From contig CAWJKZ010000021.1 of the NCBI GenBank assembly GCA_963843575.1, positions 321,661-385,660 on the forward strand: a stretch of DNA of 64,000 nt, given 5' to 3'. Below the pieces are notes generated by a model. That model was not told where the DNA came from and made no database searches. It saw only the letters and a list, made by a program, of their open reading frames with translations. The stretch comes from an uncultured Acidobacteriota bacterium (GTDB lineage Bacteria > Acidobacteriota > UBA6911). The position numbers were made by a program, and so were the translations under genes. Below are positions 27,244 through 45,587 of this stretch, one piece after another. Each line of letters starts with the position of its first letter. Positions within the stretch are counted from its first letter, which is position 1.

Positions 27244-27286
27244 CAAATGCAGCGCTCGGCAACCATCGCAAACATCGGGGAATACT

Positions 27287-27748
27287 ATGCGATCCGAAAG
27301 GTACTTCGTGTGGTCGATTCTGATAGCGAGTCTGCTGTTCACCCTGGGGTGCCCGAAAGAACCCGCCCGTGTCAACATGGTCTTGGCCGCCGCCCCCAAC
27401 GTCAACACCGACCCGGGGGGGCAGCCCCTGTCGGTGGTGGTGCGCATCTACCAGCTGAAGGACAAGGGACGGCTGGAGACCGCGGACTACAACGCCATGT
27501 GGAAGTCGGACCGGGAGACGCTCTCCGATGATTTTCTCGACCGCCAGGAGCGGGTCGTGCAGCCCGGAACCCAGGAGATGATCGAGGTCAGGGCCAATCC
27601 GCTGGCCGCCTATCTCGGGGTAGTCGCCCTCTTCCGGAATCCTTCCGGCGACAGTTGGCGCAGGGTCGTTCCGATCAAGGGCAAAAATCAGAAGGTCACC
27701 TTCAGCCTGCGCGAGCAGAGTATCGAGCTGAGCTCTTCGGGAAAATAG
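27287..27748 (+). CDS. tssJ: T6SS lipoprotein TssJ
   Basis: TLGC lipobox, PLSVVVRIYQLKD, LGVVALFRNP..DSWR. Confidence 0.9.
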   Translation: MRSERYFVWSILIASLLFTLGCPKEPARVNMVLAAAPNVNTDPGGQPLSVVVRIYQLKDKGRLETADYNAMWKSDRETLSDDFLDRQERVVQPGTQEMIEVRANPLAAYLGVVALFRNPSGDSWRRVVPIKGKNQKVTFSLREQSIELSSSGK

Positions 27749-27759
27749 GGACGGCAACG

Positions 27760-29112
27760 ATGACGCGCCTGGAAAAAGTGCTCTGGAGTGAGGGGTTGTT
27801 TCTTACCCCGCAGCATTTTCAGCAGTGGGACCGCTACTACGAGGAGTTCGTCAGCTTCCGGCTGCGCTCGCTGACGACATTCGCCTGGGGGGTCGAGGAG
27901 CTGGAGTTCAACGGGGAGGCGCTCCAGAACGGGGTGGTCGAACTGCTCCGCTGCCGGGCGGTGTTGCCCGACGGCATGCCGCTCAACATCCCCGAGACGG
28001 ACCCCGCCCCCCCGAGCCGTAACTTCACGGCTGACTTTCAGCCGTCCAGCGAACGGCTGAGCGTCCATCTTGCCGTCCCCGCGCTGCGCGCGGGCGGGGC
28101 GAACCTGGGCGTCAACGGAGGCGGGCCCGCAGATTCGATGACGCGCTTCCGCATGACGTCGGCCTCGGTGACGGACGAGAACACCGGCGAAAACCCGCAG
28201 CCGGTCTCGCTGGCCACGAAGAACCTCCGGCTCCTGCTGGGCGAGGATGTCTCGGGGCACGGGTCGCTGAAGGTGGCCGAGCTGCGCCGCACCCCGGAGG
28301 GGAAGGTTGTGCTGGACGATTTCTTCATCCCGCCGGCCACCGCCCTGACGGCCTCGAAGTACCTGCTCGACATCGTGCGCCGCTTTTACGAGGTGCTGAC
28401 GGCCAAGAGCGTGACCCTCTCGGACCAGCGGCGCCAGAAGGGCCCGGGGATGGCGGACTTCACCACTTCGGACGTCGCTAACTTCTGGCTGCTGCACACC
28501 GTCAACTCCTACCTGCCGGTCATGATGCACCTGCACCACGTCCAGAAGTTCCATCCGGAGCAGCTGTATCTCGCGATGGCGCGCCTCGCGGCGGAGCTGA
28601 CGACCTTCGTCACGGACGCGAGCCCGGGCGACCTCCCGAAGTACTTCCACAGCGATCTCACCCGCACCTTCACGGAGCTCGACCGGCGGCTGCGCGTCCT
28701 GCTGGAGACGGTGATCCCGACCCGCTGCGTCCCCATACCGTTGGAGCGCACGAAGGAATCGCTCTATGTCGGGCGCATCCTGGACGACCGGCTGCTGACC
28801 CAGGCCGAGTTTTTCCTCGGGGTGTACGCGCGGATCCCCGAGACGCAGATCATCGAGCGCGTGCCGCGCAAGACCAAGATCGCTTCGCTCGACACGATCA
28901 ACTATCTCCTCGGGCAGGCGCTGCCGGGCGTGTTGCTCCGCCCTGTCCCTATCGCCCCGGGGCCGATCCCGGCCCGCATGGGCTTCAAATACTTCCGCCT
29001 CGAGAAGCTCGGCACCTATTGGGACACCATCGCGGCCTCGCGCAGCGTCTGCATCTATTTCCCGGCCGAGTTTCCAGATCTCAAGCTGGAACTGTATGCC
29101 GTGAAGGATTGA
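27760..29112 (+). CDS. tssK: T6SS baseplate subunit TssK
   Basis: VLWSEGLFLTPQHFQQWDRY, HPEQLY, ALPGV. Confidence 0.93.
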   Translation: MTRLEKVLWSEGLFLTPQHFQQWDRYYEEFVSFRLRSLTTFAWGVEELEFNGEALQNGVVELLRCRAVLPDGMPLNIPETDPAPPSRNFTADFQPSSERLSVHLAVPALRAGGANLGVNGGGPADSMTRFRMTSASVTDENTGENPQPVSLATKNLRLLLGEDVSGHGSLKVAELRRTPEGKVVLDDFFIPPATALTASKYLLDIVRRFYEVLTAKSVTLSDQRRQKGPGMADFTTSDVANFWLLHTVNSYLPVMMHLHHVQKFHPEQLYLAMARLAAELTTFVTDASPGDLPKYFHSDLTRTFTELDRRLRVLLETVIPTRCVPIPLERTKESLYVGRILDDRLLTQAEFFLGVYARIPETQIIERVPRKTKIASLDTINYLLGQALPGVLLRPVPIAPGPIPARMGFKYFRLEKLGTYWDTIAASRSVCIYFPAEFPDLKLELYAVKD

Positions 29113-29121: not shown

Positions 29122-29841
29122 ATGCCTTCGTCACGGGACGATTTCGACAGCACGGATTTCGGCGCGGGGTCGGCCGGTTCAAAGAAGACCCTGGTGGATC
29201 TCTGCCGCGACGCTTTCCTCCTCATCTTTCACATCCGGGGGGGCAACGACCCCGGGCACCCCGACGACTTGCGGAAGAGCATCGCCGCGCTGCTCCGGAC
29301 GTTCGACGCCCAGGCGGCCAAATCGGGGTACAGCGAGGAGGATGCCAAGGCGAGTCGCTACGCCCTGTGCGCGCTCATCGACGAGACGATGCTCAACTCG
29401 AGGTGGTCGTTCAAGGACCAGTGGGCTGCGCGGCCGCTGCAGCTCGAGTATTTCGGGGAACAGCTGGCAGGGGAACGCTTCTTCGACCTGTTGGAGCGCG
29501 TCCGGCAGAAGGGGCGGAGGAAGGCCGATCTGCTCGAGGTCTTTTGCGTGGTGCTGATCCTCGGTTTCCAGGGCAAGTACAAGATGCGAGCCGGGGACGA
29601 GCTCGCGACCGTCACGCACGAGGTGGTGCAGGAGGTGCAGCAGTTCCGCGGCGGAGCCCCGGAACTGTCGCCGCATTGGCAGGTGCCCGAGGAGCATGTC
29701 GAAAAGCCCCCGCAGACAGTCCCGATGTGGGCGTGGGTTACCGGCATCGCGGCCGTGGCGCTGGTCATCGTGGTTTACGTGGTGCTGAAGCTCTGGCTGG
29801 GTTCGGCAGCCTCCGACGCCGTCGGTCGGATGGTCCTGTGA
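29122..29841 (+). CDS. tssL: T6SS TssL (DotU family), no OmpA extension
   Basis: YALCALIDE, PLQLEYFGEQLAGERFF, LGFQGKY, C-terminal TM segment. Confidence 0.92.
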   Translation: MPSSRDDFDSTDFGAGSAGSKKTLVDLCRDAFLLIFHIRGGNDPGHPDDLRKSIAALLRTFDAQAAKSGYSEEDAKASRYALCALIDETMLNSRWSFKDQWAARPLQLEYFGEQLAGERFFDLLERVRQKGRRKADLLEVFCVVLILGFQGKYKMRAGDELATVTHEVVQEVQQFRGGAPELSPHWQVPEEHVEKPPQTVPMWAWVTGIAAVALVIVVYVVLKLWLGSAASDAVGRMVL

Positions 29842-29893: not shown

Positions 29894-32800
29894 ATGAACA
29901 TATCGGCGTCAGGCCTGGCAACAAAAGTGGGGATCCCGGTCGCTCTGGCTGCGGCGGCGGTGTGGGCCGTCAACTCCTACGTCAGCCCGGACGCGGCCAA
30001 GAAGCTTCTTGCCATCATCCTGATTTTCGCGGCGGCGCTGCTGGTCGTGTGGCTCCTGGTGTGGCTGATCCGGGCCCTGGTGGTGTCGATGTCCGGGGCA
30101 CGGTCGCGGGCCAGGGCCGCGCGCGAAGCGGCCCCGGCCGAAGGGGCAACCCCGCAGGAGCGGGCCGCCCTGGACGCGCTGCAGGGGAATATCGACGTCG
30201 CGTTGCGGGTCGTGCGCGAGTCCAAAATGGCTCGGGGCCGCAAAGGCGACGAGGCGCTGTACGCCTTCCCCTGGGTGGTCCTCTTCGGCCCGCCGGAATC
30301 GGGCAAGAGCACCCTCCTGCGTGACTCGGGCGTGGAGTTCCCGTACAGCACGGCGGGCGAGGCCCGCAAATCGAAGCGCCCCGGCGTGGGAGCGGGCTGC
30401 GAATTCTGGTTCTCCCGCGACGCGGTTGTCCTCGACATGTCCGGGACCCTCGGGACCGGGGATGACGAGTTCGAGGTGTTCAAGGGCTTCCTCGACCGCC
30501 TGAAACGAGCGCGGCGCGAGCGCCCCATCGACGGCATGGTCGTAACGGTCCCGATCCGGGACATCCTGGACCAGGGCGCCGACCACGTCGAGGGGCTGGC
30601 AAACCGCCTCCGGCAGCGGGCGGACGAGATGACGCGGCGTTTCGGCATCCGCTTCCCCATCTATGTCCTTTTCACCAAGTGCGACCAAATCGACGGCTTC
30701 CCGGAGTTTTTCCGCAGTTTCCGGAGCCGCGACCGTGCCCAGGTTTGGGGCGCGACCATCTCCCGGGAGGCCCGCAAGCAGCTCCCCGTCGACGAGATCT
30801 TCCGGCAGGAGTTCGGGCGCATCGCCGAGTCGCTGCACGGCTATCGCCTCCAGGCGCTCGCGGCCGAGAAAGACCCGGGACGGCTCGCGCTCGTGTTCGC
30901 GTTTCCGGAGCGGTTCGCGGCGCTCGGCGCCAAGCTGGAGTCGTTCGTCGGCACCCTGTTCCAGGCGACCCCCTATTCGGAGAGGCCCATTTTCCGCGGG
31001 TTCTATCTGAGCAGCACCGGCGTTGCCGTCCCGGAGGCCAGGCCCGACGCGGAAGAGTTCCGCTGGGACGCCGCACGCCAGGCCGCCGCCCCGCAGCAGG
31101 AGCCGCAACGGGTCAAGAGCTATTTCCTGGAATCGCTCCTGCCCCGCGTCGTGTTCGCGGACCGTCCCCAGGTCAAGGCGTCCGTGGACACGCGCCTGCG
31201 CCGGCGGCTGTGGCTCGACGTCGCCTTCTTCGGGACGATCGCGGTGTGCACAGCGCTGCTGGTCGGGATGCTCTACTCGTTCAGCGAAAACCGCGGCCTG
31301 ATCGAGTCGACGCGGCTGGCGGCCGTGCGCCTCACCGACGCCGGATGGAACGGGCGGCGCGCGTCGGACCTGGCCGCACTGCAGCAGCTGCGCGAACGTC
31401 TCGACGAGCTGGACCGGTACCAGACCGAAGGGCCGAAATGGACGATGCGGTGGGGGTTGTACTCGGGCGACCGGGTCGTGGAGGCCGCACGCCGCGTGTA
31501 CTTCCGTCGCCTGCGCACCTCCTTCCTCCTGCCGACGGCCGACACCCTGCGGCAGAAGCTCAACGCCTATGCCTCGGCTCAGCCCGGAGCGGTCAATTAC
31601 AGCGAGTTTCACTCCTTCCTGCAGGCCTACCTGATGATGACCGAGCCGCCGCGGTCGCAGGAATCGTTCCTGCGCACCACGCTGGCGCCGGTGTGGAAGG
31701 CGCTCGGGCCCCCCGAGGCCGAGCCCGTGGTGCTGGACCAGCTGCGCTTCTACGCGCAGCAGTTGCCCAAGAACGACGCCGACCTGCAGCTGACCCGCGA
31801 CAACGAGGTGGTCGCCCGGGCGCGCCGCGCGCTCGGCCAGTTCCCGGCGCTCGATCGGCTCTACATGCGCCTGAAGACGGAGGGGAACGCCAAGTACCCG
31901 CCGTACACCCTGGCGCAGGCCACCGGGGGGAAGAGCCTGGAATACCTGAACTCCAGCCACGACGTCCCCGGGGTGTTCACCGAGGCCGGCTGGACGGGGT
32001 ACTTCAAGCAGGCCATCGCGCAGGCGGGCAAGGAGATGGTCCAGGACGACTGGGTCGTCGGGCCGACCTATAGCGGTGCGGTTCGTTCGACCGACGCCGA
32101 CTCGGAACGGCAGATCCGGGACAAGTACTTCACCGAATACGTCGAGGAGTGGCAGAAGTTCCTGGAGGGTGTCTCGGTGCGGCCCCTGGCGGACCTGAAC
32201 GAGGCCCGCTCGGCCCTGGACTCGTTCTCGCAGCAGGACTCCGCAGTGTCGCGCCTCCTGATGAATGTGGCCGCCAACACCATGCTGCGCCGGGAGCCGG
32301 AGAAAGGCAACAGCATCACCTCGATGGTTTCGAGCACCCTGGCCACACTCGGGCTCTCGACCCGCGTGAACCGCGCCGAGCTGATCGATGCGGTGGCCGA
32401 CCAGTTTCAGGCACTGCACGACGTCGTCACGTCGCCTGACGGCGGCAAGACCCCTTCGATGCTGGCAGGGTATATCCTCGCGCTGAGCAAGGTGCACGCG
32501 CGGCTCGAGGCGCTGTTCGGAGCCGGCACCCAGTGGGAGCAGGTCAAGGCCTACGTCGACATGATTGCGAACAACCTCTCCAGCAACGAGTTCCAGGAGG
32601 GTTACCGAATCACCGCGCTGATCAACAAGCAGTGCCGCACCCGCAGCACCCAGCCGGTCGGACCGATGCTGGAGCAGCCGCTGCGGCAGACCTGGGCGGC
32701 GATCCTGCGCGAAGTCGGCTTCCGGCTGGACGGATTGTGGAAGACGCAGGTGGCGGAACTCTACCGGCGGGACATCGAGAGCAGCTACCCGTTCAACCTC

Positions 32801-33478
32801 TCGGGGCAGGACCTCCCGCTGGCCACCCTGTCGCAGTTCTTGAAGCCGCGCGAGGGGAGCCTCGACGCGTTTTACGAAAAAGAACTCAAGATGTTCCTCA
32901 CCCCATCGGGCAGCGCGTTCGCGCCGCGCACGCTGTTCAACGCCGAGGTGGCATTCTCCCCGCAGTTCCTGGAGTTCCTGGAGAAGACGAACGCGATCCG
33001 CCAGGCGCTTTATCCTCCCGGGGCGCCCGACATGAGCGCCACCTTCGACCTGACCCCGGACGCGACACCGGGCGTCACCGAAAGCCTGCTGGAGATCGAC
33101 ACACAGAAGTTGCTTTACAGAAACGAGCGACCCGTCCCCTCCGTGGTGACCTGGCCGGGGAAGGGGGGATCTCCCCAGGCAAAGCTGAGCATCTCGCTGA
33201 CCGGCTCGGGGGAACGGCCGGGCATTCCGGCGATCGAAGGCGAGTGGGCCCTCTTCAGGCTGCTGGCGCAGGCCCGGGTCGTGCCGCTCTCTCAAACTGC
33301 CTACAGCGTCAGCTGGTCGCTGCCGAGCGCCGACGGGAGGAAGCTCGAGGTGCGCTACAAACTCCAGGCGCGGAGCTACCGAAACCCATTTCCCCCGAAC
33401 TTCTTCCGCGTGGTGAGCTGTCCTGAGACCGTTACGCAGCAGTCGTCGGCCGCCGCGGGACTGTCGCCGGCGCGCTGA
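29894..33478 (+). CDS. tssM: T6SS membrane subunit TssM (IcmF)
   Basis: PWVVLFGPPESGKS, PIDG, FPIYVLFTKCD, RGFYLSS, EGEWALFRLL. Confidence 0.93.
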   Translation: MNISASGLATKVGIPVALAAAAVWAVNSYVSPDAAKKLLAIILIFAAALLVVWLLVWLIRALVVSMSGARSRARAAREAAPAEGATPQERAALDALQGNIDVALRVVRESKMARGRKGDEALYAFPWVVLFGPPESGKSTLLRDSGVEFPYSTAGEARKSKRPGVGAGCEFWFSRDAVVLDMSGTLGTGDDEFEVFKGFLDRLKRARRERPIDGMVVTVPIRDILDQGADHVEGLANRLRQRADEMTRRFGIRFPIYVLFTKCDQIDGFPEFFRSFRSRDRAQVWGATISREARKQLPVDEIFRQEFGRIAESLHGYRLQALAAEKDPGRLALVFAFPERFAALGAKLESFVGTLFQATPYSERPIFRGFYLSSTGVAVPEARPDAEEFRWDAARQAAAPQQEPQRVKSYFLESLLPRVVFADRPQVKASVDTRLRRRLWLDVAFFGTIAVCTALLVGMLYSFSENRGLIESTRLAAVRLTDAGWNGRRASDLAALQQLRERLDELDRYQTEGPKWTMRWGLYSGDRVVEAARRVYFRRLRTSFLLPTADTLRQKLNAYASAQPGAVNYSEFHSFLQAYLMMTEPPRSQESFLRTTLAPVWKALGPPEAEPVVLDQLRFYAQQLPKNDADLQLTRDNEVVARARRALGQFPALDRLYMRLKTEGNAKYPPYTLAQATGGKSLEYLNSSHDVPGVFTEAGWTGYFKQAIAQAGKEMVQDDWVVGPTYSGAVRSTDADSERQIRDKYFTEYVEEWQKFLEGVSVRPLADLNEARSALDSFSQQDSAVSRLLMNVAANTMLRREPEKGNSITSMVSSTLATLGLSTRVNRAELIDAVADQFQALHDVVTSPDGGKTPSMLAGYILALSKVHARLEALFGAGTQWEQVKAYVDMIANNLSSNEFQEGYRITALINKQCRTRSTQPVGPMLEQPLRQTWAAILREVGFRLDGLWKTQVAELYRRDIESSYPFNLSGQDLPLATLSQFLKPREGSLDAFYEKELKMFLTPSGSAFAPRTLFNAEVAFSPQFLEFLEKTNAIRQALYPPGAPDMSATFDLTPDATPGVTESLLEIDTQKLLYRNERPVPSVVTWPGKGGSPQAKLSISLTGSGERPGIPAIEGEWALFRLLAQARVVPLSQTAYSVSWSLPSADGRKLEVRYKLQARSYRNPFPPNFFRVVSCPETVTQQSSAAAGLSPAR

Positions 33479-33493
33479 CAAGGAGCAGAGACG

Positions 33494-34960
33494 ATGGACA
33501 CCCTACTGGAACAGCTCCAGGCTAAAGCGGCGGGGCACCCCCCCTCGCTTCCACTCAAGCTGCTGGTCGTTGCCGACTGCGCCGGGGATGCGACGCAACC
33601 GGCCGTCCGAATCCAGCAGGGGCTCGACGGGCTGTTTCAGAGCCTCCGCCCCACCGTGCGGCTGAGCGTTGAGAACCGGCTCCAGCCGGGAGCCCCGAAG
33701 CTGGCGCTCGAGCTGCAGTTCCGCTGCCTGAGCGATTTCCACCCCGAGTCGGTGGTCGGCCGCACGGCGGTCCTGTCCGAGGCGCGGCAGGCGGGCCATC
33801 CCGCCCTGGCGGAACAGCTCGACCTGGTGCTTCACCACCCCGAGTTCCAGCGCGTGGAAGCGGCCTGGCGCGGCCTGGCGCGGCTCTGCCGTGAACTCGA
33901 GGACAAGCCCGGCGTGATCGCGGAGGTGCTCACGACAGGCCGGAAGGATCTTGCAGGGACGTTCCACGGCCGGGTTTTCGAACCGGAGTACCGGGGAGAG
34001 GCCGGGCCGCCCCTGTCGGCGGTGCTGTTCGATTTCCGGTTCAGCCACGAGCCCGCCGACCTGCCCCTGCTCGAGGCGCTCGCTGCCGATTGCGCCGCCC
34101 TGGAAGCCCCCATGATCGCAGCCACCTCGCCCGCGTTTTTCCAGCTGAAAAACCTTGCCCATCTCCCCAGCCTGCCGGAACTCGGGCCGCGGATGCAGCA
34201 GCCCGCCTATGCCGGTTGGCGCCGCTTCCAGACCGACGCGGCGTCCCGCTGGGTGTGCCTGACCGCCAACCGCTTTCTGGCGCGCGAGAGCTACGCCCTG
34301 AGCCGCGAAGCCGGGGACGCTCTCGACTACCGCGAAAAGGCCGATGCCGCCCACCCCGAAAACTACGTGTGGGCGGAGGCCGGGTGGCTCATCCTGTGCA
34401 ACCTCGCCCGCAGCTTCTCGAAATACCGCCACTGCGTGGTCATCGACGGGATGAGCCCAGACACCGCCCACGACAACCTTCCGGTACGCCCTTTCCCAAA
34501 AAAGGCGAACGTGGAGGTGCCGAGCCCGACCGAGATTCTCCTGGACGACACCAAGGCGTGGGAGATCGTCCGGGCGGGCATCACTATCCTGCTCGGGATC
34601 AGCGACGGGGCAGTGGCGAGTTTTCCACTGGTGGCCAACGCTTACCGGCTGAAACCCGGAGTTGTCACGGTCGAGTCGGCGCTGTCCTACCAATTGTTCG
34701 CCGGGAACCTGTTCCACTATCTGGTTGCCCTCTACCCTGAATTCCCCGCCGAGGGCGCCGAGGCGGTAGCTGCTTTCGTGCGTTCCCACCTCGAGGAGTT
34801 TCTCGTGCCGTTTGTGGGCGACCAGCCTGGGGAGTCTGTCCGCGCCGAGCTCGTCGAAGCTGCCGGCGAGACTGCCGGCCGGACGTTGCAGGTCACGCTC
34901 CGGCCGCAGCTCAAGATGCAGGGGAAAGACGTGGACTTCGCGCTCAGCATCGCGCTCTGA
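33494..34960 (+). CDS. divergent TssB-TssC sheath fusion protein 1
   Basis: TssB-like LPLKLLVVAD...VENRL...DFHPESV followed by TssC-like QLDLVLHHPEFQRVEAAWRGL and NRFLARESY. Confidence 0.78.
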   Translation: MDTLLEQLQAKAAGHPPSLPLKLLVVADCAGDATQPAVRIQQGLDGLFQSLRPTVRLSVENRLQPGAPKLALELQFRCLSDFHPESVVGRTAVLSEARQAGHPALAEQLDLVLHHPEFQRVEAAWRGLARLCRELEDKPGVIAEVLTTGRKDLAGTFHGRVFEPEYRGEAGPPLSAVLFDFRFSHEPADLPLLEALAADCAALEAPMIAATSPAFFQLKNLAHLPSLPELGPRMQQPAYAGWRRFQTDAASRWVCLTANRFLARESYALSREAGDALDYREKADAAHPENYVWAEAGWLILCNLARSFSKYRHCVVIDGMSPDTAHDNLPVRPFPKKANVEVPSPTEILLDDTKAWEIVRAGITILLGISDGAVASFPLVANAYRLKPGVVTVESALSYQLFAGNLFHYLVALYPEFPAEGAEAVAAFVRSHLEEFLVPFVGDQPGESVRAELVEAAGETAGRTLQVTLRPQLKMQGKDVDFALSIAL

Positions 34961-34968
34961 GAGGCCCC

Positions 34969-36780
34969 ATGGTCAAGAACGCCAGAGACAGGATCCGGTT
35001 CGGCGGTGAGGCGCCGTCGGAGTCGTCGTCGCCGCCGCTGCGACTGCTCGCCATCGCCGATCTCTCCTGCGCCGGCGACGGCGTCGCCCGGCGGGTGCGC
35101 GTGGACAAGGACTCGTTCAACGAGGTGCTCCGGACGGTGTGTCCCCGGATTGCCATCCAGCTTCGGTCGCGGTCTCCCTCGGGTTCCCCAGTGGAAGCCG
35201 AGTTCCCGATCCAGGACCTGAAATCCTTCGCCCCCGCGCAGCTCGCCGGCGCGCCCCTGTTCCGCGACCTGGTCAGCGACAGGGCCGCGGCAGTCGATCT
35301 GCGGGACGGCCGGATCCGGCCGGAGGAGTTCAAACACCGGGTTCAATCCGACGTCTTGCGCGACGCCCTTGCGGGGCTGATGCACGAACCGTCCGCGCCG
35401 CCGGCCGTGGAAAAAACCCCCGAGCCGCAGCGCCGCACGGACCCCCGGAAGGACGACATCCTCGATTCGATTCTCGGCATGGTCGAGGCCCCCGCTGCCG
35501 CGGGGGCGGCAGAGCCGACAACCGACGGGGCTGCCCGCGTCCAGGCCTTCATCTCCGACATGTTCAAAGGTGGGCGTCCTGGCGGCGGAGTGGACCGCGG
35601 GAAGGCCGACCGGATGGTGAAGGACATCGAGGGCATGCTGGTCTCCCGGATGAACGAAGTGCTCAACCACCCCGAGTTCCGGCGGTTGGAGTCGGCCTGG
35701 CGCGGCCTGAAGTTCCTGGTGGACCGCACCGACTTCCGCGACGCGATCGAACTCGACGTCGTTTCCGCGCCCAAAGGGGAATTGGTGCGGGTCATGGAAG
35801 CCGCGTTGACCGATCTGGACGCCGGCGCTGCCGGGGTGGACGCGGTGCTGGCGGCCTTCGAGTTCCGCAACACTCCCGAAGATCTGGACGTCGCAAGACG
35901 CGCGGCGGAGCGCGCCGCGGAGCTCAGGGCTCCGGTCGTGATCTCCGTTGGTGCGTCGTTCTTCGGACAGGAGAGTGCGGCGGAGGTGACGCGCATCCCT
36001 CACCTGCGCGCGCACCTCGACACCCCCGGGTTCGTAAAGTGGGACTCCTTCCGCGGCGTCGAGAGTTCACGATGGCTCGGCGCGGCGTTCAACCGGTTCC
36101 TCCTGCGGAACCGTTACGAGCCTGCGTCGGCCCGGGTGGCGTTCCCATTTCACGAGGCCGGCGACGGTCTGTGGGGCGACCCCGTCTGGGCGATAGGATC
36201 GCTGCTGGTGCGCAGTTTTTCACGCACCGGCTGGTGCGGGCACATCACCGGAGTGCGCGGGGGCGGGGTCCTCGAGGACTTGCCCGTGCGGGATTTTGCG
36301 CTGCCGTCGGGGGACGTGCGGCAGATCCCGCTCGAGTCGGTGTTTCTGCGTGGCAGGGAAGACGATTTCTACGCCGCCGGTTTCGCGGCGCTGCAGTGCG
36401 GTGAGGACCAGGACGTCGCCGCCCTGTTGGCTGCGCCGACGACGCACCGGCCCGAACAGTACCCCGACGCGCGCGAGAGCGAGAGCAGCCGTCAGCGCGC
36501 CCAGTTGTCCTACCAGCTGGTCGCCGGCCGGATCGCCCGCTTCGTGGAGCGGGAACTCGCGCAGCTGGGCGGGTCGGCTGCGGCGGAAATCCAGACGGGG
36601 CTCGCCGCCGCGCTGAAGCGATTGATGGGGCAGGCGAGTCCGGATTCCGTGCAGGTCCGCCTCTCGGAAAGTCAGGAAAGGGTCGGCTACCACGACCTCG
36701 CGGTTGACATCCGCCCGGGCCCGTCGATCTGGCCTTTCTCGACGGCGATTCAACTGAAGATTCCGCTGCGCAGGAACTGA
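34969..36780 (+). CDS. divergent TssB-TssC sheath fusion protein 2
   Basis: TssB-like PLRLLAIAD...VDKDSFNEV...LKSFAP followed by TssC-like VLNHPEFRRLESAWRGLKFLVDRTDFR, RFLLR, GGVLEDLP. Confidence 0.8.
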   Translation: MVKNARDRIRFGGEAPSESSSPPLRLLAIADLSCAGDGVARRVRVDKDSFNEVLRTVCPRIAIQLRSRSPSGSPVEAEFPIQDLKSFAPAQLAGAPLFRDLVSDRAAAVDLRDGRIRPEEFKHRVQSDVLRDALAGLMHEPSAPPAVEKTPEPQRRTDPRKDDILDSILGMVEAPAAAGAAEPTTDGAARVQAFISDMFKGGRPGGGVDRGKADRMVKDIEGMLVSRMNEVLNHPEFRRLESAWRGLKFLVDRTDFRDAIELDVVSAPKGELVRVMEAALTDLDAGAAGVDAVLAAFEFRNTPEDLDVARRAAERAAELRAPVVISVGASFFGQESAAEVTRIPHLRAHLDTPGFVKWDSFRGVESSRWLGAAFNRFLLRNRYEPASARVAFPFHEAGDGLWGDPVWAIGSLLVRSFSRTGWCGHITGVRGGGVLEDLPVRDFALPSGDVRQIPLESVFLRGREDDFYAAGFAALQCGEDQDVAALLAAPTTHRPEQYPDARESESSRQRAQLSYQLVAGRIARFVERELAQLGGSAAAEIQTGLAAALKRLMGQASPDSVQVRLSESQERVGYHDLAVDIRPGPSIWPFSTAIQLKIPLRRN

Positions 36781-36934: not shown

Positions 36935-39283
36935 ATGGCGACGACAGCCCGAAGGTTGGGGCTGGAAGCTGATTTCTTCTTCCAGGCCGGTTCCTATTCG
37001 GAGAAGGATCTTCGTGTGGTCCGGTTTGAGGGGACGGAGTCGCTCTCGGAACTATTCCGGTTCCAGCTGCAGCTTGCGTTGGAGGATGTCGAGGCCGATT
37101 TCGAATCCATCCTTGGCAAACCGGCACGACTCAAGATCATGGGGCGTGAAGGGACGCGGTACGTCAACGGCATTATAAGCTGGTTTGAACAGGCCGGCGA
37201 ACCGACGCGGCTGACGCAGTACAGCGCGGAACTCGTGCCGAGAATCTGGCTGCTCCATCACCGTCACAACTCGCGAATCTTTCAGGAGATGACGGTTAAG
37301 GACATCATCGACAAGGTGCTGAAAGACGCGAAGATCCCGCCCGACGAATTCGAATTCCAGTTGCGCAAGACGTATCCGACGCGCGAGTACTGCGTACAGT
37401 ACCGGGAATCGGATTTTGCGTTCATATCCAGGCTCATGGAAGAGGAGGGAATTTACTACTGGTTCGAGCACACGGAGAAGAAGCACGTCCTGACGATGAG
37501 CGACGCGTTCTCCATCCACGTCCCCATCGAGGGGAACGCGGGGCTGGTGCTGCATGAAGTGACAGGCGAAGAGCCCGACTTCGAGCACATCTACCACTTT
37601 CGCTACACGGAAGAGGTGAGGCCCGGGGAAGTTGTCCTCCGCGATTTCGACTTCAAGAAGCCGTCCTTGGATCTGACGGCCAACAAGGCCGCAGATGTTC
37701 GTAAAGAGCTCGAGATTTATGACTACCCGGGCGAATACGTCCAGCCGGCCGTAGGCAAAGATCTCAGCGAGGTGCGGCTTCAGGAAGCGCAGACTCCGCG
37801 GAAGGTCGGTCAGGGCAGAACAAACTGCCGCCGCATGCTCCCCGGGCGCAAGTTCACCTTGGACAAACACAACCGGACGGCGTTGAACCAGGAATACCTG
37901 ATCACGCGCGTGCTGCACACCGGGGCGCAGGTTCAGACGTTCAAAGAAGCGGCCGGCACGTCGAAGGGCAACGAGTACAACGCGGAGTTTTCGTGCATCC
38001 CGGCGAAGGTCCAGTTCCGGCCGGCGCGGGTTACGCCGCGCCCTGTCGTGCACGGCTCGCAAACCGCGATCGTGACCGGTCCCGCGGGGGAAGAAATCTA
38101 CCCGGACGAGCACGGGCGCGTGAAGGTGCAGTTTCACTGGGACCGCGAGGGCAAGAAAGACGAAAAGACCTCCTGCTGGATCCGGGTGAGCCAGAACTGG
38201 GCCGGTCCCAGCTGGGGGGCGATGATTATTCCTCGGATCGGCCACGAGGTGATAGTGGACTTCCTGGAAGGCGATCCTGACCAGCCGATCATCACCGGTC
38301 GCGTCTACAACGGCGCAAACCGGCCTCCCTACCCGCTTCCGGGCGAAAAGACCAAAAGCACCTGGAAGTCGAACAGCTCAAAGGGGGGCGGTGGTTCAAA
38401 CGAACTCCGGTATGAGGACAGCAAAGGGTCGGAGGAGATCTACCTTCACGGGCAAAAGGACTGGAACATCGTCATCGAGAACGACAAGACCCAGAAGATC
38501 GGCCACGACGAAAGCCTCGACGTCGGCCACGACCGCAGCAAGCATGTGGGGAACGACCAGTCCGAAAAAGTCGACAACAACAAGAGCATCACGGTCGGGG
38601 TCAACCACACGGAGAAAATCGGGTCCAATAAGGACCTTACGGTCGGCGCCAATCACACGGAGAAGATCGGCGCCAACATGTCAGTTACGGTCGGCTCAAA
38701 CTTGACGGAGAACGTTGCCCTGAATTATTCGGAAACCGTCGGTATCGCTATGGAGCTGACAATAGGCGCGGCCATGACCCATACGGTCGGCGCAGCGCTC
38801 ATGCAGAGTGTGGGCGCCAACATGTCCCAGAGCATCGGGGTTTCGAAATCGATCAATATTGGATCGAACCTGACTCAATCGGTGGGCGCAAATTCAAAGG
38901 AGCAGATCGGGAGCAACAAGTCCACGAAGGTCGCCAGTAACGACACCATTTCAGTCGGTGGAGACCAAAAGCTCGATGTCAGTGGCAAGCGAAGCACCTC
39001 GATCGGAAAAGAGGACTCACTGAAGGTTGGGACGAAGCTCACCATCGACGCTGGAGATCAGATCGTACTTCAGACGGGCAGTTCCAGCATAACCATGAAG
39101 AAGGATGGCACAATCAACATCAAAGGCATGAAGATTACGATTGAAGGTACTCAAAAGATCGAGGAGAAGGCAGCCCAGATCAGTTCCGAGGCCCAGACGA
39201 AGAACGAGATGAAGGGCGCGATGGTGACAGTCGAGGCCTCTGGCATCAACACAATCAAGGGCGCCCTGGTGAAGATCAACTGA
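36935..39283 (+). CDS. vgrG: T6SS spike protein VgrG with long gp5-like beta-helix repeats
   Basis: YCVQYRESDFAFISRLMEEEGI, GRVKVQFHWD, IPRIGHEVIVDFLEGDPDQP; repeated (H)TEKIGxN units. Confidence 0.95.
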   Translation: MATTARRLGLEADFFFQAGSYSEKDLRVVRFEGTESLSELFRFQLQLALEDVEADFESILGKPARLKIMGREGTRYVNGIISWFEQAGEPTRLTQYSAELVPRIWLLHHRHNSRIFQEMTVKDIIDKVLKDAKIPPDEFEFQLRKTYPTREYCVQYRESDFAFISRLMEEEGIYYWFEHTEKKHVLTMSDAFSIHVPIEGNAGLVLHEVTGEEPDFEHIYHFRYTEEVRPGEVVLRDFDFKKPSLDLTANKAADVRKELEIYDYPGEYVQPAVGKDLSEVRLQEAQTPRKVGQGRTNCRRMLPGRKFTLDKHNRTALNQEYLITRVLHTGAQVQTFKEAAGTSKGNEYNAEFSCIPAKVQFRPARVTPRPVVHGSQTAIVTGPAGEEIYPDEHGRVKVQFHWDREGKKDEKTSCWIRVSQNWAGPSWGAMIIPRIGHEVIVDFLEGDPDQPIITGRVYNGANRPPYPLPGEKTKSTWKSNSSKGGGGSNELRYEDSKGSEEIYLHGQKDWNIVIENDKTQKIGHDESLDVGHDRSKHVGNDQSEKVDNNKSITVGVNHTEKIGSNKDLTVGANHTEKIGANMSVTVGSNLTENVALNYSETVGIAMELTIGAAMTHTVGAALMQSVGANMSQSIGVSKSINIGSNLTQSVGANSKEQIGSNKSTKVASNDTISVGGDQKLDVSGKRSTSIGKEDSLKVGTKLTIDAGDQIVLQTGSSSITMKKDGTINIKGMKITIEGTQKIEEKAAQISSEAQTKNEMKGAMVTVEASGINTIKGALVKIN

Positions 39284-39664: not shown

Positions 39665-39866
39665 CTACTCCGGTGGCCGTCCCATTGAGGTGATCGGCCC
39701 CGTTACGGGTACGAAATATCGTTTTTCCGGGATGGCCAGGATTGGTCTGGTGGATCCGCGGGATGCGGTAATGATGGTGCGGAACCGCAGATTCAGAGTC
39801 GAGGGGATCGTGGAGCTACCGCCTGGGGCGGACACAGCTTCAGGGAGGAGGGAGACACATGGGTAA
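39603..39866 (+). CDS. small hypothetical protein (MSCCG...GPVTG..YRF...VDPRDA)
   Basis: ATG at 39603, overlaps both neighbouring genes. Confidence 0.55.
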   Translation: MSCCGETRTAPLTERHRMKISYSGGRPIEVIGPVTGTKYRFSGMARIGLVDPRDAVMMVRNRRFRVEGIVELPPGADTASGRRETHG

Positions 39867-40233
39867 GCCGGCAGCAAGACTGGGCGACTCAACCATGCAT
39901 GGTTCACCGTTGCTGGGTGCGGCGTGCATGACAGTGCTCATCGGCGGCAAGCCCGCATGGCGCATTACCGATCAGCACACCTGTCCAATCCCAAATGCTC
40001 CGCCTCCGGCTTGTACTGGTACGCCCCATGGTCCGGGAATCACCACGCCCGTTCCGGACGGCGGTTCGGGGATCGTCTTGATTGGGGGAAAGCCGGCCGC
40101 TCGGGTCGGAGACATCGTCATGGAGCCCGGCGCTCTCCTTCCGCTGCCGCCCCCCAACAACATCGTCGTCGGCGAGTTCACGGTGCTGATCGGGATGGGC
40201 GGCGGTGGCGGGTGCCCCGCGGGCGCAACCTGA
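39859..40233 (+). CDS. PAAR domain protein
   Basis: KPAARLGD..MHG, KPAWR..DQHTCP, KPAARVGD. Confidence 0.9.
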   Translation: MGKPAARLGDSTMHGSPLLGAACMTVLIGGKPAWRITDQHTCPIPNAPPPACTGTPHGPGITTPVPDGGSGIVLIGGKPAARVGDIVMEPGALLPLPPPNNIVVGEFTVLIGMGGGGGCPAGAT

Positions 40234-40747
40234 ACGTGACGAAAAGCTCCGGTCGGAGCTACGCTTTCTCTCAAGCTGGAGTGCGCATCGTCTAGTGGAA
40301 CCTTGGCGGCTGGCGTGCGGTTTTATGACAAGGAGAAAAATTCACCGGGATTTCAACGAATTTCTTGCCCGGTACGCGGATTGGGACGCCGCGCGCGGGA
40401 CCGACCTGGAGCCGAAGAACCGGAGAGGGCGTTCCCGACGTGAGTTCTGCGACCGGGAAGATGAATGACGCGCCAACAGACATCGCGGCCGGTCTAAGGG
40501 ATTGCGTTCTATGGAGGCTGCGCCGGACGGCATAACCTTTTTGATTTCAAATGGATTGGAAAGGGTGGGGGGGGTATAGGATTAGGTGGAGAAGTTCGAT
40601 CAGACAGATCTCCGGGTGATCGTTTAGATTAGTCCCGAGTCGCGAATTCACTCTCGCGCGCCGTATTCGAGCCGTAGGGGTTGCTCTCCTATGAGTGACT
40701 CCGGCTTTACATCCCTGTCCGGCGCGCTATTGCCAGAAAGGATTTCT

Positions 40748-41692
40748 ATGGCTGAGGACCAGAGACGTGCCGGCCAAGCGCGGGTGAACGCCGAAGAGTT
40801 GAGGCCTGGCGTGGATCTTTCCAAGCGCTGGCTTGAGGGAGCCGACCTCTCTCGCCGCGATCTTGCTGAAGCCAATCTGTCGGGAGCGAACCTCCGAAAT
40901 GCCAACCTGTGCAGCGCTGTCCTCGCTGGTGCCATTCTCACCGAGATCTCGGCTGAAGGAGCGGTAATGCGCGAAATCTCGCTAGAGAATGCCGAACTCA
41001 GCGATGCACTCCTCGTATCCTGCGACCTGACAGGGGCGAATCTCAAGGGGGCTAATTTGGCCAAGGCCAATCTGACGCGCGCGAAGCTAACCCGCGCCAA
41101 TCTGACTGGAGCCAATCTCTCGACTGCCAAACTGGCGGAGGCTGACCTGACTGGGGCTGTTCTTACGAGTGTAGATCTGTCTTCTGCGACGGCACCGGGG
41201 GCCATTCTGAGGGACGTCATCATGGAGGGATCGAATGCCAGGATGGCAGACTTTTCGGAGTGCGATTTCAGCCGAGCCAAGGTCCGGAAAGCCAGTTTCG
41301 AGCGGGCTGCGCTAACGAGGGCAACATTTGACCAGACCGCTGCAGAAGGCGCTGTGTTCGAATTCGCTGATCTGCGAGGTGCGACAGTCAAGAAGGCCGA
41401 ATTCGCACAGGCCAGCTTGGTCGGAGCGACTTTGTCTGGTGCCCGGGCGTTCGACTGTGATTTCCGCGAGACGGATTTCTACTGGGCTGAGATGGAAGGC
41501 TTCGAGATGGTGCGGTGCAACACCGAGGGCGCAAGGGTCCCGGAGAAGGTCGAGATCAAGTACGGCCCTCGGGGCGTGAAGCCACCCGAGGTTAAGCCGG
41601 TTCCCTTGTATCGAACCGCCGCGACTGCAGAGGAGAGGAAGAGACTGGTCGAGGCGGCTCTCAGGGCTGAATCCTCGCAAGGCAAGGAATAG
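40748..41692 (+). CDS. pentapeptide repeat protein
   Basis: Extended A(N/D)Lxx repeats. Confidence 0.88.
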   Translation: MAEDQRRAGQARVNAEELRPGVDLSKRWLEGADLSRRDLAEANLSGANLRNANLCSAVLAGAILTEISAEGAVMREISLENAELSDALLVSCDLTGANLKGANLAKANLTRAKLTRANLTGANLSTAKLAEADLTGAVLTSVDLSSATAPGAILRDVIMEGSNARMADFSECDFSRAKVRKASFERAALTRATFDQTAAEGAVFEFADLRGATVKKAEFAQASLVGATLSGARAFDCDFRETDFYWAEMEGFEMVRCNTEGARVPEKVEIKYGPRGVKPPEVKPVPLYRTAATAEERKRLVEAALRAESSQGKE

Positions 41693-41769
41693 GTAGCACG
41701 AGAACGTGGCGCCGGCGATTCCGGCGGCCGGGTAATTTCGGGCATTCGAAAGACGCTTCAAGTGTCTCT

Positions 41770-41976
41770 ATGCGCGTAGTCAACGGAACCCCATATCCTG
41801 TGGATACAGTGCTCTGGGAAGATCTCCAGGGACACTCCAAACTGACAGTTATCGTCAAGGCTACGTTCGAGATTGGAAAGGGTAAGATGGCGGCAGCCGA
41901 CAAGCAGCTCCCTGTCTTCGCTGCTGACCAGCACTACCGAGATGATCCCACCGCTTCTATGCGATCAGAAGGGTAA
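41770..41976 (+). pseudogene. truncated DUF2169 N-terminal fragment
   Basis: WEDLQ...VIVK.TF...PVF.ADQ.YRDD aligns with the first ~68 aa of the gene at 46550, then stops. Confidence 0.75.
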
Positions 41977-42082
41977 ACTCTACGAGGACAGGGCGTGGAA
42001 GAGCTGTCGCGAGGCGGCGAAACGTCGGCCCAGAAAACCGTGATACCCAGCAGCGGCGCTGGCCGGCATTAATGGTACTGAC

Positions 42083-45000
42083 ATGTGCGACGTCAACATT
42101 GCCACCGGTCAAGTTACGCAGTTCCAGATCGACGTGCTCCTATCGGGAAGGATTCCCTGGCGTCTGACCCGTCGCTACTCGAGCGAGAACCCCAAGCGCG
42201 GTGTAGTCGGCTATGGCTGGACGTTGAACCTTGGCACGTTCCTTCGATGTGGACCCGAACAGATCCAGATGCTGGTTGACGGCGAGCCGTCTTCGCAGTT
42301 CCCGCCGATCGCCGTCGGCCACTTGCGCCCGCTGGACGACTCTGGAGTTGCGGTGGCCCGAACGGACGCAGGCATCTCCGTGACGGACCGCGTTGGCACG
42401 ACATTCGTTTTTCCGTGTGGCGAGCCGCTGCCGAACCTAGTCCCCTGCGTGAGGCGATACGATCACTATCGTAACTTCATCGAGTACCGCTACGACGGCG
42501 ACGCACGGCTTCGGACGCTGACCGACACGTTCAATCGGCAGATAGTCTTCGCATACGACGGGCGCTCGCGGCTGGTCGAGGTGTTTGCCGCGTTCGGGTC
42601 GACCCACTGGTCTCTTGTCCGTTATGAGTACGACAAGGACGACGATTTGGTCGCCGTCATCGACCCCGGCGGGAATCCCACTCGATACGAGTACTCATCA
42701 CATCTGCTCACGCGTGTGACTGATCCCACCGGTCGCGATCTCTACTACCAGTACGATCGCGACAAGAAATGCGTACGGACCTGGTTTACTGGCGGGGTGT
42801 GGGATCGGCAGCTGTCCCACGATCCGCTTCGGCGGCGCGTTCTCGTCACTCATCCGGACGGATACTCGAAGCTCTTCAGCCACGACGGCAAGGGCACCGT
42901 AACCGGCGACGTCGATCCCCTGGGTCGGGTGCGCGAAGATGTGGTGGACCACAACGGGAAGATCCTTCTGCGTGCTGGCGCGATACCGACGGTCATCCGC
43001 CGCGACCCTGGTTCGAACATCGTGCTGATGTCTCGGAATGGGCTGGAAACCTTTGCTGAGGTCGACGCGAACGATCAGGTGACGCTGCTCAGAAAGCACG
43101 ATGGCAGTGTCTGGAAGTACGAATATGACGCCGCCGGCAACCCGACACGTTCGGAGGCGCCAGACGGCGCGGTGTGGAAGTTCGACTACAACGAACACGG
43201 TGACCTAGTCCGTTTCGTTGACCCTACCGGTTATGAACGACATCGCGAACGCGCTGCTGACCGGCTCGTCCTGCGCGATGCGTGGGGCCTTCGCCAAGAC
43301 GAGCGATTCGATCGCCTTGGCCGGACGACCCAGGTTATCGATGGAGAGGGCGGCGAGGTCCGCTTCCGCTACGACGCGTCCGGAAGACCGCTCCAACGCA
43401 TCAACCCTGACGGAACATCGACATCGGTCGAGTATGACGCCGCTGGCCGTCCCACTCTTCTGACAGACGAACTCGGTAAGCAACTGCGATTGATGAGGGA
43501 TCCCACGAACACGTGGGTCAAGGTCTTCCGTTCCGATGGACACCAGGAAGTCTACGAGTACGGCCTGAGCGACGAACTGAGAAGGATTACAAATTCAGCG
43601 CGCGAAACAGCCGAGCTCTGGTACGACGCCGCGGGCCGATGTACGCGCGTCCGCTATTTCGACGGACGACAACACGCGATCGACTATGACGACGCGGACA
43701 ATCCAATCGCGCTGCGAGATGGTCGAACGGGCACGGTGCTGGCCACGTGCAAGTACGCCGACGACAAACTCGTCGAGGAGCTGTATTACGACGGGCGCCA
43801 CTTGAAGATAGAGTACGGCCCGGCTGGGGAAGTGGTTTCGGTCGAGAACGACGACGCGACGCTGTCGTATGAGCGCGATGCGTTGATGCGTATCGTAAGG
43901 GCGCGTCAGAACAACCTGGAGCTGAACTACGGCTACAACCTCAGGGGGGATCGCACGTCTCTGACGACGAACAGGGGTCGTCGAATCGAGTACGTCTGGG
44001 ACGGTCGCGGTCGACTCGTCAGGATGGTCGACACTGCGGCCGGAACGTACGAGTATTCGTACGACGGCCGGGACCTAGTGACCGGGATCCGGATGCCCAA
44101 TGGGTGCGTCCAGTCTATCAAGTACGACCGACGACAGCGGATGATCTCGCGCCGCGTGACACGCGTCGATGGTTCCGAGATCTGCTCTCGAGAGTTCTCG
44201 TACGACCAACGATCACGACTGATCCGATACCTGGATAGCGTGCGAGGGACGCGAAGCTACACGTACGACGCATCGGATTTCCTGACGTCGGCCAGCGATG
44301 ACGGAGGCATCGTCCGGTTTCAGCACGACTCGAACGGCAACCTGCTGGCGACACGGAACGGGGATCCGGTCGCATACGCCCGCGGGGATCGCCCGACGCG
44401 CGTCGGCCCGGATGAAATCGGCTACGACGAGCGAGGCAACCTGGTCCTGTGGCGGTCTAGCAGCGGCGAATCTCGTTTCGAGTACACGGGCGAGAGCTGG
44501 CTCAAACGCGCGCGGCTCGCTGCCGGCACCGTGGCGGAATACGAATACGATGGGCTCGCACGCCGGACCGCGAAGACGGTTGATGGGCAGCGCACCGAGT
44601 TCGACTGGGATGGTGTCTGTGTGCTGAGCGAGCGCACCGAGACCGAGGCGATCGAATACCTGTTCATGCCCGGCTCCTTCTTCGTAGCAGGGGTCACGCG
44701 GGGCGGGCGACACTATTCCTACGTGCTCGACCAGCAGGGAGCGCCCACTGAGCTGATAGACGATGCCGGCGAGATCGTGTGGGCGGCTGATTACGCCCCG
44801 CACGGCGAAGTCACGGCCGTTCGAGTCGCCAAGGTCGCCCAGCCCTTTCGCTTCCTCGGTCAGTACTACGACGACGAACTGACGTGGCACTACAACCGGT
44901 TTCGGTACTACCACCCGCTACTCGGCCGGTTTACGAGCCCTGACCCGCTGTGCTTTGCGGCGGGCATCAACCTGTATCGGTACGCACCGAATCCCGTGAA

Positions 45001-45532: not shown

Positions 45533-45587
45533 GCAGTAGATTTCATTTGGTAGAGATCGAAGAACGGCACCTTCTCTGGAGAGAACG

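Follow-up and report, generated by a model that had tools for sequence, protein, structure and literature searches.

The window considered here is a stretch of 64,000 nucleotides from an uncultured soil Acidobacteriota bacterium of the UBA6911 lineage (assembly GCA_963843575.1, contig CAWJKZ010000021.1, positions 321,661 to 385,660), and it contains one type VI secretion system (T6SS) locus in two arms, tssJKLM-FUS1-FUS2-vgrG on the + strand and clpV-tssGFECBA on the - strand. We are concerned with FUS1 and FUS2, two adjacent + strand open reading frames (ORFs) of 488 aa (33494..34960) and 603 aa (34969..36780), in each of which a TssB-like N-terminus runs in frame into TssC-like sequence. Both are single-chain paralogs of the two sheath proteins; FUS1 appears to be trimmed, and FUS2 to be a nearly complete protomer. 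The initial annotation of the window had pointed to the two ORFs at 33494-36780 and to their fused make-up, and both points hold, the second by Pfam, by profile-profile comparison, and by AlphaFold2 (AF2) and Foldseek. FUS1 and FUS2 are a conserved ordered pair within a large, multi-phylum and apparently unstudied family of single-chain sheath paralogs.

The pair is tightly set in its arm, between tssM (29894-33478) and vgrG (36935-39283), and some 21.7 kb separate the end of FUS2 from the canonical tssC and tssB, so that the placement given in the initial annotation, away from tssBC, is borne out. The FUS1 ATG follows the tssM stop by 15 nt, with an AAGGAG at 33480-33485 that is 2 nt after that stop and 8 nt before the ATG. 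The FUS2 ATG comes 8 nt after the FUS1 stop, and a GAGG at 34961-34964 directly follows the stop and ends 4 nt before the ATG; vgrG begins 154 nt downstream of FUS2. This layout, as read from the DNA, would be compatible with one transcript shared with tssJKLM. The G+C content at third codon positions is 0.84 for FUS1 and 0.85 for FUS2, typical for the real genes of the window. In one sediment metatranscriptome run, 5% of the sampled words of the window were found; a 218-nt contig from that run covers 36500-36717, in FUS2, with 1 mismatch, and a 214-nt contig covers 30091-30304, in tssM. Since carry-over of DNA is possible and the remainder of the window is uncovered, these contigs are no evidence of transcription.

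Two features of the canonical sheath are needed to read the anatomy of the pair. The available text of PMC5807055 describes a handshake, in which a TssC hairpin takes up two strands from its neighbours, a C-terminal one from another TssC and an N-terminal one from a TssB. The same text has domain 3 bearing the helix that is targeted by ClpV, here called the ClpV handle, and gives this domain as missing from the R2 pyocin sheath, which is not recycled. Our profiles of the FUS1 family (31 rows) and the FUS2 family (58 rows) were compared with 65 canonical TssB and 71 canonical TssC proteins from fetched loci. The FUS1 alignment took 30 of 36 matches (P0001, P0004, P0028, P0033, P0034 and P0036 were left out, being fragments or not taken), and the FUS2 alignment took 57 of 120 listed matches, those that were near full length and had both PF05591 and PF05943.

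In FUS1, Pfam places T6SS_VipA on residues 18-94 (38.7 bits, E 1.1e-9; cut-off 24 bits) and VipB on residues 104-372 (E 4.5e-53). By hhalign, residues 17-99 match TssB 28-118 (E 1.4e-16, probability 98.8) and residues 95-483 match TssC 69-487 (E 3e-54). The protein can thus be laid out as an N-terminal helix (residues 1-16, 33494..33541) that is conserved in the family and stands at the place of the TssB donor arm, TssB-like core strands (residues 17-99, 33542..33790), and a TssC-like body with a C-terminal, VipB_2-like domain and the last strand (residues 100-488, 33791..34957), all on the + strand. The alignment to TssB begins only at TssB 28, without the N-terminal arm (N-arm), and that arm is absent from all the FUS1-type relatives examined. 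The TssB match ends at residue 118 of 165, before the C-terminal helices, and the first 68 residues of TssC have no counterpart, so that FUS1 has no domain 3 and no ClpV handle. The AF2 model (mean predicted local distance difference test score, pLDDT, 77.4; predicted template modelling score, pTM, 0.84) has a helix at 4-12. Across the 31 sequences of the family M1, L5, L8 and A12 of the N-terminal helix are nearly invariant, and its mean identity is 0.64. This helix was considered as a relocated ClpV handle and rejected: a position-specific scoring matrix (PSSM) built from 58 distinct canonical TssC handles scores it at or below -0.1 in 31/31 FUS1-family proteins, no better than other positions. 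The most conserved segment of FUS1, residues 320-391 (mean identity 0.78), lies in the inner-layer region and has low pLDDT in the monomer model; such poor folding of the monomer would be expected of a surface that becomes ordered on assembly. Judged by its alignments, then, FUS1 is a protomer trimmed to two domains, as in pyocin, with the core, C-terminal domain and C-terminal strand retained.

FUS2 is more complete. The Pfam match to T6SS_VipA at residues 41-131 is barely above the cut-off of 24 (24.3 bits, E 2.9e-5), and VipB matches residues 214-493 (E 7.6e-55); the scan for both profiles that the initial annotation had proposed therefore finds both in each protein. By hhalign, residues 6-127 match TssB 12-142 (E 1.3e-25) and residues 155-596 match TssC 13-488 (E 2e-101). 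On the + strand, an N-terminal arm (residues 1-22, 34969..35034) aligned to the TssB donor strand is followed by the TssB-like core with domain-3 helices (residues 23-135, 35035..35373; AF2 strands and helices at 24-134), a poorly conserved linker of low confidence between the TssB-like and TssC-like parts (residues 136-160, 35374..35448), a conserved helix at the position of the ClpV handle (residues 161-176, 35449..35496), and the TssC-like body with the C-terminal domain and last strand (residues 177-603, 35497..36777), for which pLDDT is mostly above 90. The model as a whole has pLDDT 87.1 and pTM 0.84. Residues 6-12 align by hhalign with the strand of the TssB N-arm, and a motif of the type R-I-x-F-G recurs there in close orthologues; pLDDT of the arm is below 50, as expected of an arm that is ordered only within a lattice. 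The TssB-like part ends at TssB 142 of 165. In the linker, pLDDT is below 50 at 141-162 and mean identity is 0.19 among 19 close relatives.

Does FUS2 retain a ClpV handle? Helix 161-176 aligns by hhalign to TssC residues of about 19-34, the ClpV-binding N-terminal helix; its mean identity is 0.60, and V172 is nearly invariant across the family alignment. With the handle PSSM, 29 of 58 FUS2-family proteins have their top match at the homologous site, but only 14 score above the 95th percentile of shuffles (2.3), and FUS2 of the window, at 2.3, just equals that percentile. The PSSM being weak, the assignment rests on the profile-profile alignment. A check for the ClpV-binding helix had been proposed in the initial annotation, and its outcome is split, with a conserved helix in place in FUS2 and none in FUS1. 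The idea of a ClpV-resistant subunit, raised there as well, divides in the same way: it would suit FUS1, which has neither domain 3 nor handle, and it sits badly with FUS2, which appears to keep the handle position. From its alignments FUS2 seems to be a nearly complete protomer, with the N-arm, the interlaced core, the domain-3 helices, a putative ClpV handle, and the C-terminal domain with its donor strand.

The two proteins have diverged strongly, as had been claimed: identity is 28% between FUS1 and FUS2 and 28-30% between either of them and the TssC of the window. Of the motifs cited for the fusion, LPLK.LV..D, VDKD.FNEV, DF.PESV, HPEF.R.E.AWRGL and RFL.R are present; EDLP is found in FUS2 and TssC, whereas FUS1 has DNLP. 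The best Foldseek matches are TssC chains for FUS2 (E 3.2e-28) and TssC/VipB chains for FUS1 (E 2.8e-17), from the sheaths of Myxococcus, Vibrio and Pseudomonas, with template modelling (TM) scores of 0.64-0.79 on the target. Because Foldseek compares single chains, the case for the TssB-like part is made by the sequence profiles, together with the order in which strands and helices follow one another. Neither FUS protein has TssB as a separate polypeptide of about 165 aa with domain-3 helices; in both, it is fused to a TssC-like part. The profile of the VipB N-terminal domain (PF05943) matches both, and the C-terminal gpW/gp25-like domain, the acceptor hairpin and the donor strand are found in both by hhalign, which is confident to TssC 487 or 488 of 495. 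Pfam VipB_2 (PF18945) is silent on FUS1 and FUS2; in the relative L101 that family scores 25.4 bits (E 1.8e-5), slightly below the cut-off of 27. Both AF2 models end in helices and then three strands. Complex prediction with FUS2 1-112, FUS2 206-603 and FUS1 as partner returned scores of 0.40, 0.33 and 0.38; the controls gave 0.00, 0.00 and 0.23, and the result speaks neither for nor against a complex.

The initial annotation had named three findings that would speak against it: N-terminal regions without the TssB fold, genes that are not kept as a pair, and the relaxed selection typical of decaying duplicates. The first does not apply, by Pfam, by profile-profile comparison and by the order of strands and helices in the AF2 models. 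As to selection, FUS1 has a ratio of nonsynonymous to synonymous substitution rates (dN/dS) of 0.15 and FUS2 one of 0.23 when compared with L004, the closest relative, beside 0.25 for tssJ, 0.11 for tssK, 0.07 for tssL, 0.10 for tssM and 0.06 for vgrG; with L005 as the reference, FUS1 stands at 0.11 and FUS2 at 0.23, and dS is saturated. FUS1 and FUS2 are under purifying selection and are not decaying.

The pairing is also kept. A FUS1-type gene has a FUS2-type gene immediately downstream in 3/3 genome loci, namely two from Acidobacteriota metagenome-assembled genomes (MAGs; L004 and L005) and one from Candidatus Poribacteria (L007). A metagenome scan gave 32 loci, 21 of FUS1 type and 11 with canonical tssBC, the latter set aside; where a FUS1-type locus extends at least 600 nt downstream, a FUS2-type ORF follows on the same strand in 13 of 14 cases, after a gap of about 1 kb in L094 and L095. 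The exception is L098, with no FUS2-type gene downstream of the FUS1-type gene, and this locus may be a rearranged or frameshifted pair. We note that L098 (1-2427) has a weak sheath-like ORF directly upstream instead (TssC 78 bits, FUS2 72 bits). Several pairs (L007, L091, L093-L096, L100, L101 and L105) are only 29-36% identical to the proteins of the window, and each member of these distant pairs is still nearer its own type, which argues that the duplication is old.

The neighbourhood of the pair varies with distance. In 7/7 assessable loci of the Acidobacteriota type tssM lies directly upstream of the pair, and the order tssJKLM with FUS1-FUS2, as in the window, is also seen in L004, L005 and L085. 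The distant pairs have no T6SS core gene within about 6 kb. On two low-GC metagenome contigs a response-regulator/SpoIIE (PP2C phosphatase) gene lies at most about 2.6 kb from the pair (L101, 2281-3408; L105, 9127-10296), and these pairs are otherwise flanked by unrelated housekeeping genes. One further observation concerns the genome of L004, G406: on its contig 12, at 706449-707354, the canonical tssC is in three VipB pieces in different frames with one internal TGA, and FUS1 and FUS2 are intact. The split is probably due to long-read indel errors, and it could also be a genuinely broken sheath gene.

Single-chain TssB-TssC paralogs form a large family in several phyla, and so the present locus is no special case in having them. 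A FastTree tree of 126 rows divides, with support 100, into 105 fused proteins and 21 canonical TssC. The FUS1-type clade (34 rows, support 100) is nested among the fused proteins, and the FUS2 clade (62 rows, support 99) is the main clade of the fused family. The tree took 20 of 70 canonical TssC; the program flagged long branches, and the deeper order is insecure. In the wider FUS2 family single fused genes are found in Nitrospirota (L006 and L010), Ignavibacteria (L011), Rhodothermales (L021 and L056) and other Acidobacteriota. In one Nitrospirota MAG the fused gene is beside an FHA + SLT transglycosylase protein (L006, 8401-9885), and in the other beside an FHA-GAF-HisKA protein and a CHASE2/sigma-54 activator (L010, 145-1689 and 4743-7472); in the Ignavibacteria locus it lies among transporters. 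In Acidobacteriota the fused gene precedes vgrG in L008, adjoins tssKLM in L009, and is divergently upstream of tssB-tssC in L018, L019, L062 and L104.

A search with FUS1 by HMMER of 1.84 billion cluster representatives gave 3330 matches at E <= 1e-3, 160 of them at E <= 1e-30. The best 150 of the 3330 are mostly two-stretch (fused) proteins of 600-650 aa, and also hold about 12 short FUS1-like proteins of 447-504 aa and some proteins of 800-2151 aa. In six long proteins of 1100-2151 aa (P0180, P0189, P0213, P0214, P0217 and P0301) a FUS1/TssC-like stretch lies deep inside. The only public names of the family are "ImpC", "type VI secretion system contractile sheath large subunit" and "sheath domain-containing protein". 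Our full-text literature searches turned up no description of a fused accessory TssB-TssC; supplements of T6SS surveys (e.g., TXSScan, PMC4793230) could list such genes. A search of plasmids with FUS2 gave no member of the fused family. The top "single-piece" plasmid matches were rejected, being, in Vibrio, a read-through of canonical tssB-tssC and, in one Ralstonia record, a fused coding sequence (CDS) of canonical type. In that record, the megaplasmid of Ralstonia solanacearum SL3022 (CP023017.1; L116, 11869-13809), tssB-tssC is one CDS of 647 aa directly before hcp-tssE-tssF, annotated "type VI secretion system-associated protein". Its BLASTP score is 398 bits to the TssC of the window and 192 to FUS2, and since the former far exceeds the latter we take it for a main-sheath fusion or a sequencing artefact rather than a member of the accessory family.

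How do the fused genes relate to the canonical system? The co-occurrence survey proposed in the initial annotation gives a uniform answer: all ten other genomes with fused genes (L004-L011, L021 and L056) have one canonical-type VipB and exactly one TssF, the canonical VipB scoring 381-451 bits in all but G406, whose VipB is broken up over three frames. The fused protein as sole sheath was looked for in these ten genomes and found in none. In the genome of the window three genes bear VipB, namely canonical tssC, FUS1 and FUS2; TssF has a single match genome-wide, which makes tssG/tssF/tssE the sole baseplate gene set, and the sole Hcp match in the genome is an hcp about 4 kb past the window end. 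In a sample of the phylum 44 of 401 genomes have any VipB match. Four genomes of the same phylum (G279, G282, G294 and G383) have 3-6 VipB matches each, including low-scoring ones in frames of 465-918 aa, and multiplicity of sheath paralogs seems to be common in the phylum.

We turn to the remaining genes of the locus and its surroundings. On the + strand, tssJ (27215-27748), tssK (27655-29112) and tssL (29122-29841) precede tssM, with Pfam families T6SS-SciN, T6SS_VasE, DotU and IcmF across tssJKLM, and vgrG has Phage_GPD, Gp5 and Phage_base_V. On the - strand are clpV (52300-55713; AAA_2, AAA_lid_9, Clp_N, ClpB_D2-small), tssG (55047-56114), tssF (56078-57838) and tssE (57988-58395), the last three also assigned by Pfam, canonical tssC (58453-59940; VipB E 3.9e-133, VipB_2 E 1.1e-45), canonical tssB (59979-60545; T6SS_VipA E 1.4e-57) and tssA (60503-62077; ImpA_N and VasJ). 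The start of canonical tssB is likely an internal ATG that gives a product of 165 aa. The coordinates of clpV are those of the longest ORF, of 1137 aa; alignments to ClpV of other loci begin at about residue 229-238 of this ORF, and the real start is probably internal, some 229 codons in. The cargo region after vgrG (39859-47635) encodes, in order, PAAR (39859-40233) and pentapeptide-repeat (40691-41692) proteins, then a DUF6531-bearing Rhs protein (42083-45532) with a SUKH/SMI1 immunity-like gene behind it (45588-46229), and last a DUF2169 protein (46490-47635). The GC content dips to 0.57-0.61 over 38-52 kb, compared with 0.62-0.69 elsewhere in the window. Five ORFs in 48006-52173 and 62217-63365 have no Pfam family at E <= 0.01; four are on the + strand (411, 257, 343 and 446 aa), and one of 382 aa is on the - strand, adjoining tssA.

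What might an additional pair of fused protomers do for a machine that already has a sheath? Past the domain anatomy of FUS1 and FUS2 we can only infer. The reading that we favour, at roughly two chances in five, is that FUS1 and FUS2 are co-transcribed, anciently duplicated accessory sheath protomers that serve one canonical T6SS as low-copy lattice subunits at one end of the sheath. The pair would not replace the sheath; it would enter the TssBC lattice in low copy at one end, and the candidate sites are the first ring or rings on TssE, or the last ring beneath the TssA cap. According to the available text of PMC5813253, the two linkers of each subunit go to the ring nearer the baseplate, those of the first ring have TssE as their proposed acceptor, and it is still unclear what makes up the distal end and how growth stops. 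That paper and PMC5797969, as available, also describe an altered VipA linker with which subunits are tied to the previous ring solely by the VipB linker and the sheath is non-contractile. FUS1 would accept linkers and donate the C-terminal one, and so would be tied to the baseplate-nearer ring by one of the usual two. It would be invisible to ClpV, and a terminal ring that contains it might then differ from the bulk sheath in contraction and recycling. FUS2 would enter the lattice like any subunit and stay addressable by ClpV. It is this handshake and ClpV literature, together with the elements that FUS1 and FUS2 have retained and lost, that leads us to favour specialised end subunits in low copy. 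The sheath folds, the close spacing of the genes, the purifying selection, the kept order, the single canonical system per genome and the conserved inner-layer region of FUS1 count for it as well. The specialised layers of a heteropolymeric sheath proposed in the initial annotation are plausible on this view, though a soluble role competes with them.

Several points weigh against this reading. No result puts FUS1 or FUS2 inside a sheath. The FUS2 handle is flanked by linkers of low confidence and so may be permanently exposed, and an exposed handle, going by the model, would fit an adaptor or decoy for ClpV more readily than a subunit of the lattice. Conservation of the FUS2 N-arm is low (0.33), and the arm is variable or missing in several distant members of the family, so that competence to polymerise is not a family-wide trait. 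Both proteins miss the NCBIfam equivalog cut-offs, for TssB (TIGR03358, cut-off 97.25) at 35.2 bits for FUS1 and 20.7 for FUS2, and for TssC (TIGR03355, cut-off 271.5) at 184 and 215.2 bits; on these scores the TssB-like part is best called a homologous domain, not an equivalog. Finally, in other phyla the pairs or single fused genes are far from the T6SS core and beside regulators (response-regulator/PP2C phosphatase, FHA, sigma-54 activator).

A bolder form of the end-subunit reading, which we hold doubtful, is that this bacterium and many others have a heteropolymeric sheath in which a terminal ring of FUS1 and FUS2 survives ClpV and acts either as a distal terminator or as a persistent baseplate seed for re-firing. 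The missing N-arm of FUS1 would set the connectivity of such a ring apart from the bulk, and the invisibility of FUS1 to ClpV would do the same for its recycling. If this were true, a persistent seed at the baseplate would let the machine re-fire from the same site, and a distal ring would be the long-sought sheath terminator. Accounts of the T6SS sheath take it to be a TssB/TssC homopolymer, and here a multi-phylum family of single-chain paralogs always rides with a canonical system. With a pair in which one member lacks a linker arm and the ClpV-targeted domain there is a definite candidate for a part, structural or regulatory, that has been missing, and current annotation names mask the fact that the FUS genes are neither TssC equivalogs nor a second system.

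The strongest rival, which we consider somewhat unlikely, is that FUS1 and FUS2 are soluble regulators or mimics that stay outside the stable sheath and tune its assembly, length or recycling. FUS2, its ClpV handle permanently exposed, would serve ClpV as adaptor or decoy, or would cap the sheath and halt its growth, and FUS1 would block free handshake sites or TssA. Much of what was just said against lattice subunits speaks for such regulators: the helix at the handle position of FUS2 is conserved between linkers of low confidence, FUS1 is short of one donor arm, conservation of the N-arm is weak in the family at large, and fused genes are detached from the core and near signalling genes in Nitrospirota, in Ignavibacteria and in the low-GC pair loci. 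One would think, however, that a pure decoy has no need of the whole C-terminal handshake domain and strand that both proteins keep, nor does a place outside the sheath sit easily with an inner-layer region that is the most conserved part of FUS1. FUS1, lacking the handle, could not act on ClpV in the known way.

It is improbable, though worth stating, that the pair are assembly factors at the junction of membrane complex and baseplate, nucleating or templating the first TssBC ring on TssE/TssK as a "sheath primer" and then leaving in the manner of a chaperone. The attraction lies in gene position, after tssJKLM and before vgrG in 7/7 assessable Acidobacteriota-type loci (L004, L005, L084, L085, L087, L088 and L089), with the fused gene followed by vgrG in L008 and beside tssKLM in L009, but this position is not kept outside the Acidobacteriota-type clade. 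We disfavour still more, as very improbable, a second independent sheath, in which FUS1 and FUS2 polymerise alone around a tube as an alternative contractile apparatus. FUS2 does have all the parts of a protomer and both folds are sheath folds; nevertheless Hcp, TssF and the T6SS locus are each single in the genome, the ten other genomes each have exactly one TssF and a canonical TssC, and in none of those ten was a fused protein the sole sheath. That the two genes are decaying tssBC duplicates or long-read frameshift artefacts, for which one might cite the three-frame canonical tssC of the closest relative, is refuted by the conservation data, since fusions of the same architecture are shared by dozens of independent assemblies and phyla, dN/dS is 0.15-0.23, the ORFs are intact with ribosome-binding sites, and the fused proteins make a deep clade of their own.

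How do low-copy end subunits, as we propose them, compare with known sheath proteins? Canonical TssB/TssC (VipA/VipB, HsiB1/HsiC1; PDB 3J9G, 5N8N, 5URW/5URX and 5MXN) have the same fold and order of domains as FUS1 and FUS2, and FUS2 appears to retain the two donor arms and the handle position in domain 3, along with the C-terminal domain. The FUS proteins differ in being one chain and not two, in forming a separate clade, and in always being additional to the canonical pair; FUS1 lacks the N-arm and domain 3, and FUS2 has a linker of about 25 residues of low confidence. Extracellular contractile injection systems (Afp2-4, Pvc2-4) have several sheath paralogs per machine, some of them limited to layers near the baseplate. 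Their sheaths are remote Foldseek matches of FUS2, 6j0n_V and 6rao_D at E of about 1e-6 and such matches as a whole at about 1e-6 to 1e-4 (TMq 0.31-0.34, 8-12% identity); identity of 8-13% and TM of 0.3-0.5 do not place FUS2 among them. These paralogs are single-chain by ancestry and are without TssB/TssC signatures, and the likeness to FUS is one of analogy only.

The R2 pyocin sheath (PDB 3J9Q/3J9R) resembles FUS1 in having domains 1 and 2 only, without the ClpV-targeted domain 3, and pyocin sheaths are, in the available text of PMC5807055, not recycled. The R2 pyocin subunit keeps both donor arms and forms the bulk sheath, whereas FUS1 lacks the N-arm and accompanies a three-domain sheath; the sequence kinship of FUS1 is with TssBC, not with pyocin. 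VipA-N3 of Vibrio cholerae, as far as the available accounts of it go, carries an engineered insertion in a bulk subunit, and FUS1 is a natural paralog without that arm. Agrobacterium tumefaciens has in TssC40 (Atu4340) an extra TssC homologue beside TssC41, non-redundant for Hcp secretion according to the available text of PMC3702570, and by description this is the nearest published case that we met; the TssC40 gene comes directly after tssB-tssC41, whereas the FUS pair comes after tssM. The nearest kin remain the other members of the single-chain paralog family, which like FUS1 and FUS2 co-occur with a canonical T6SS, and among these what marks the present locus is that two members stand together as an ordered pair.

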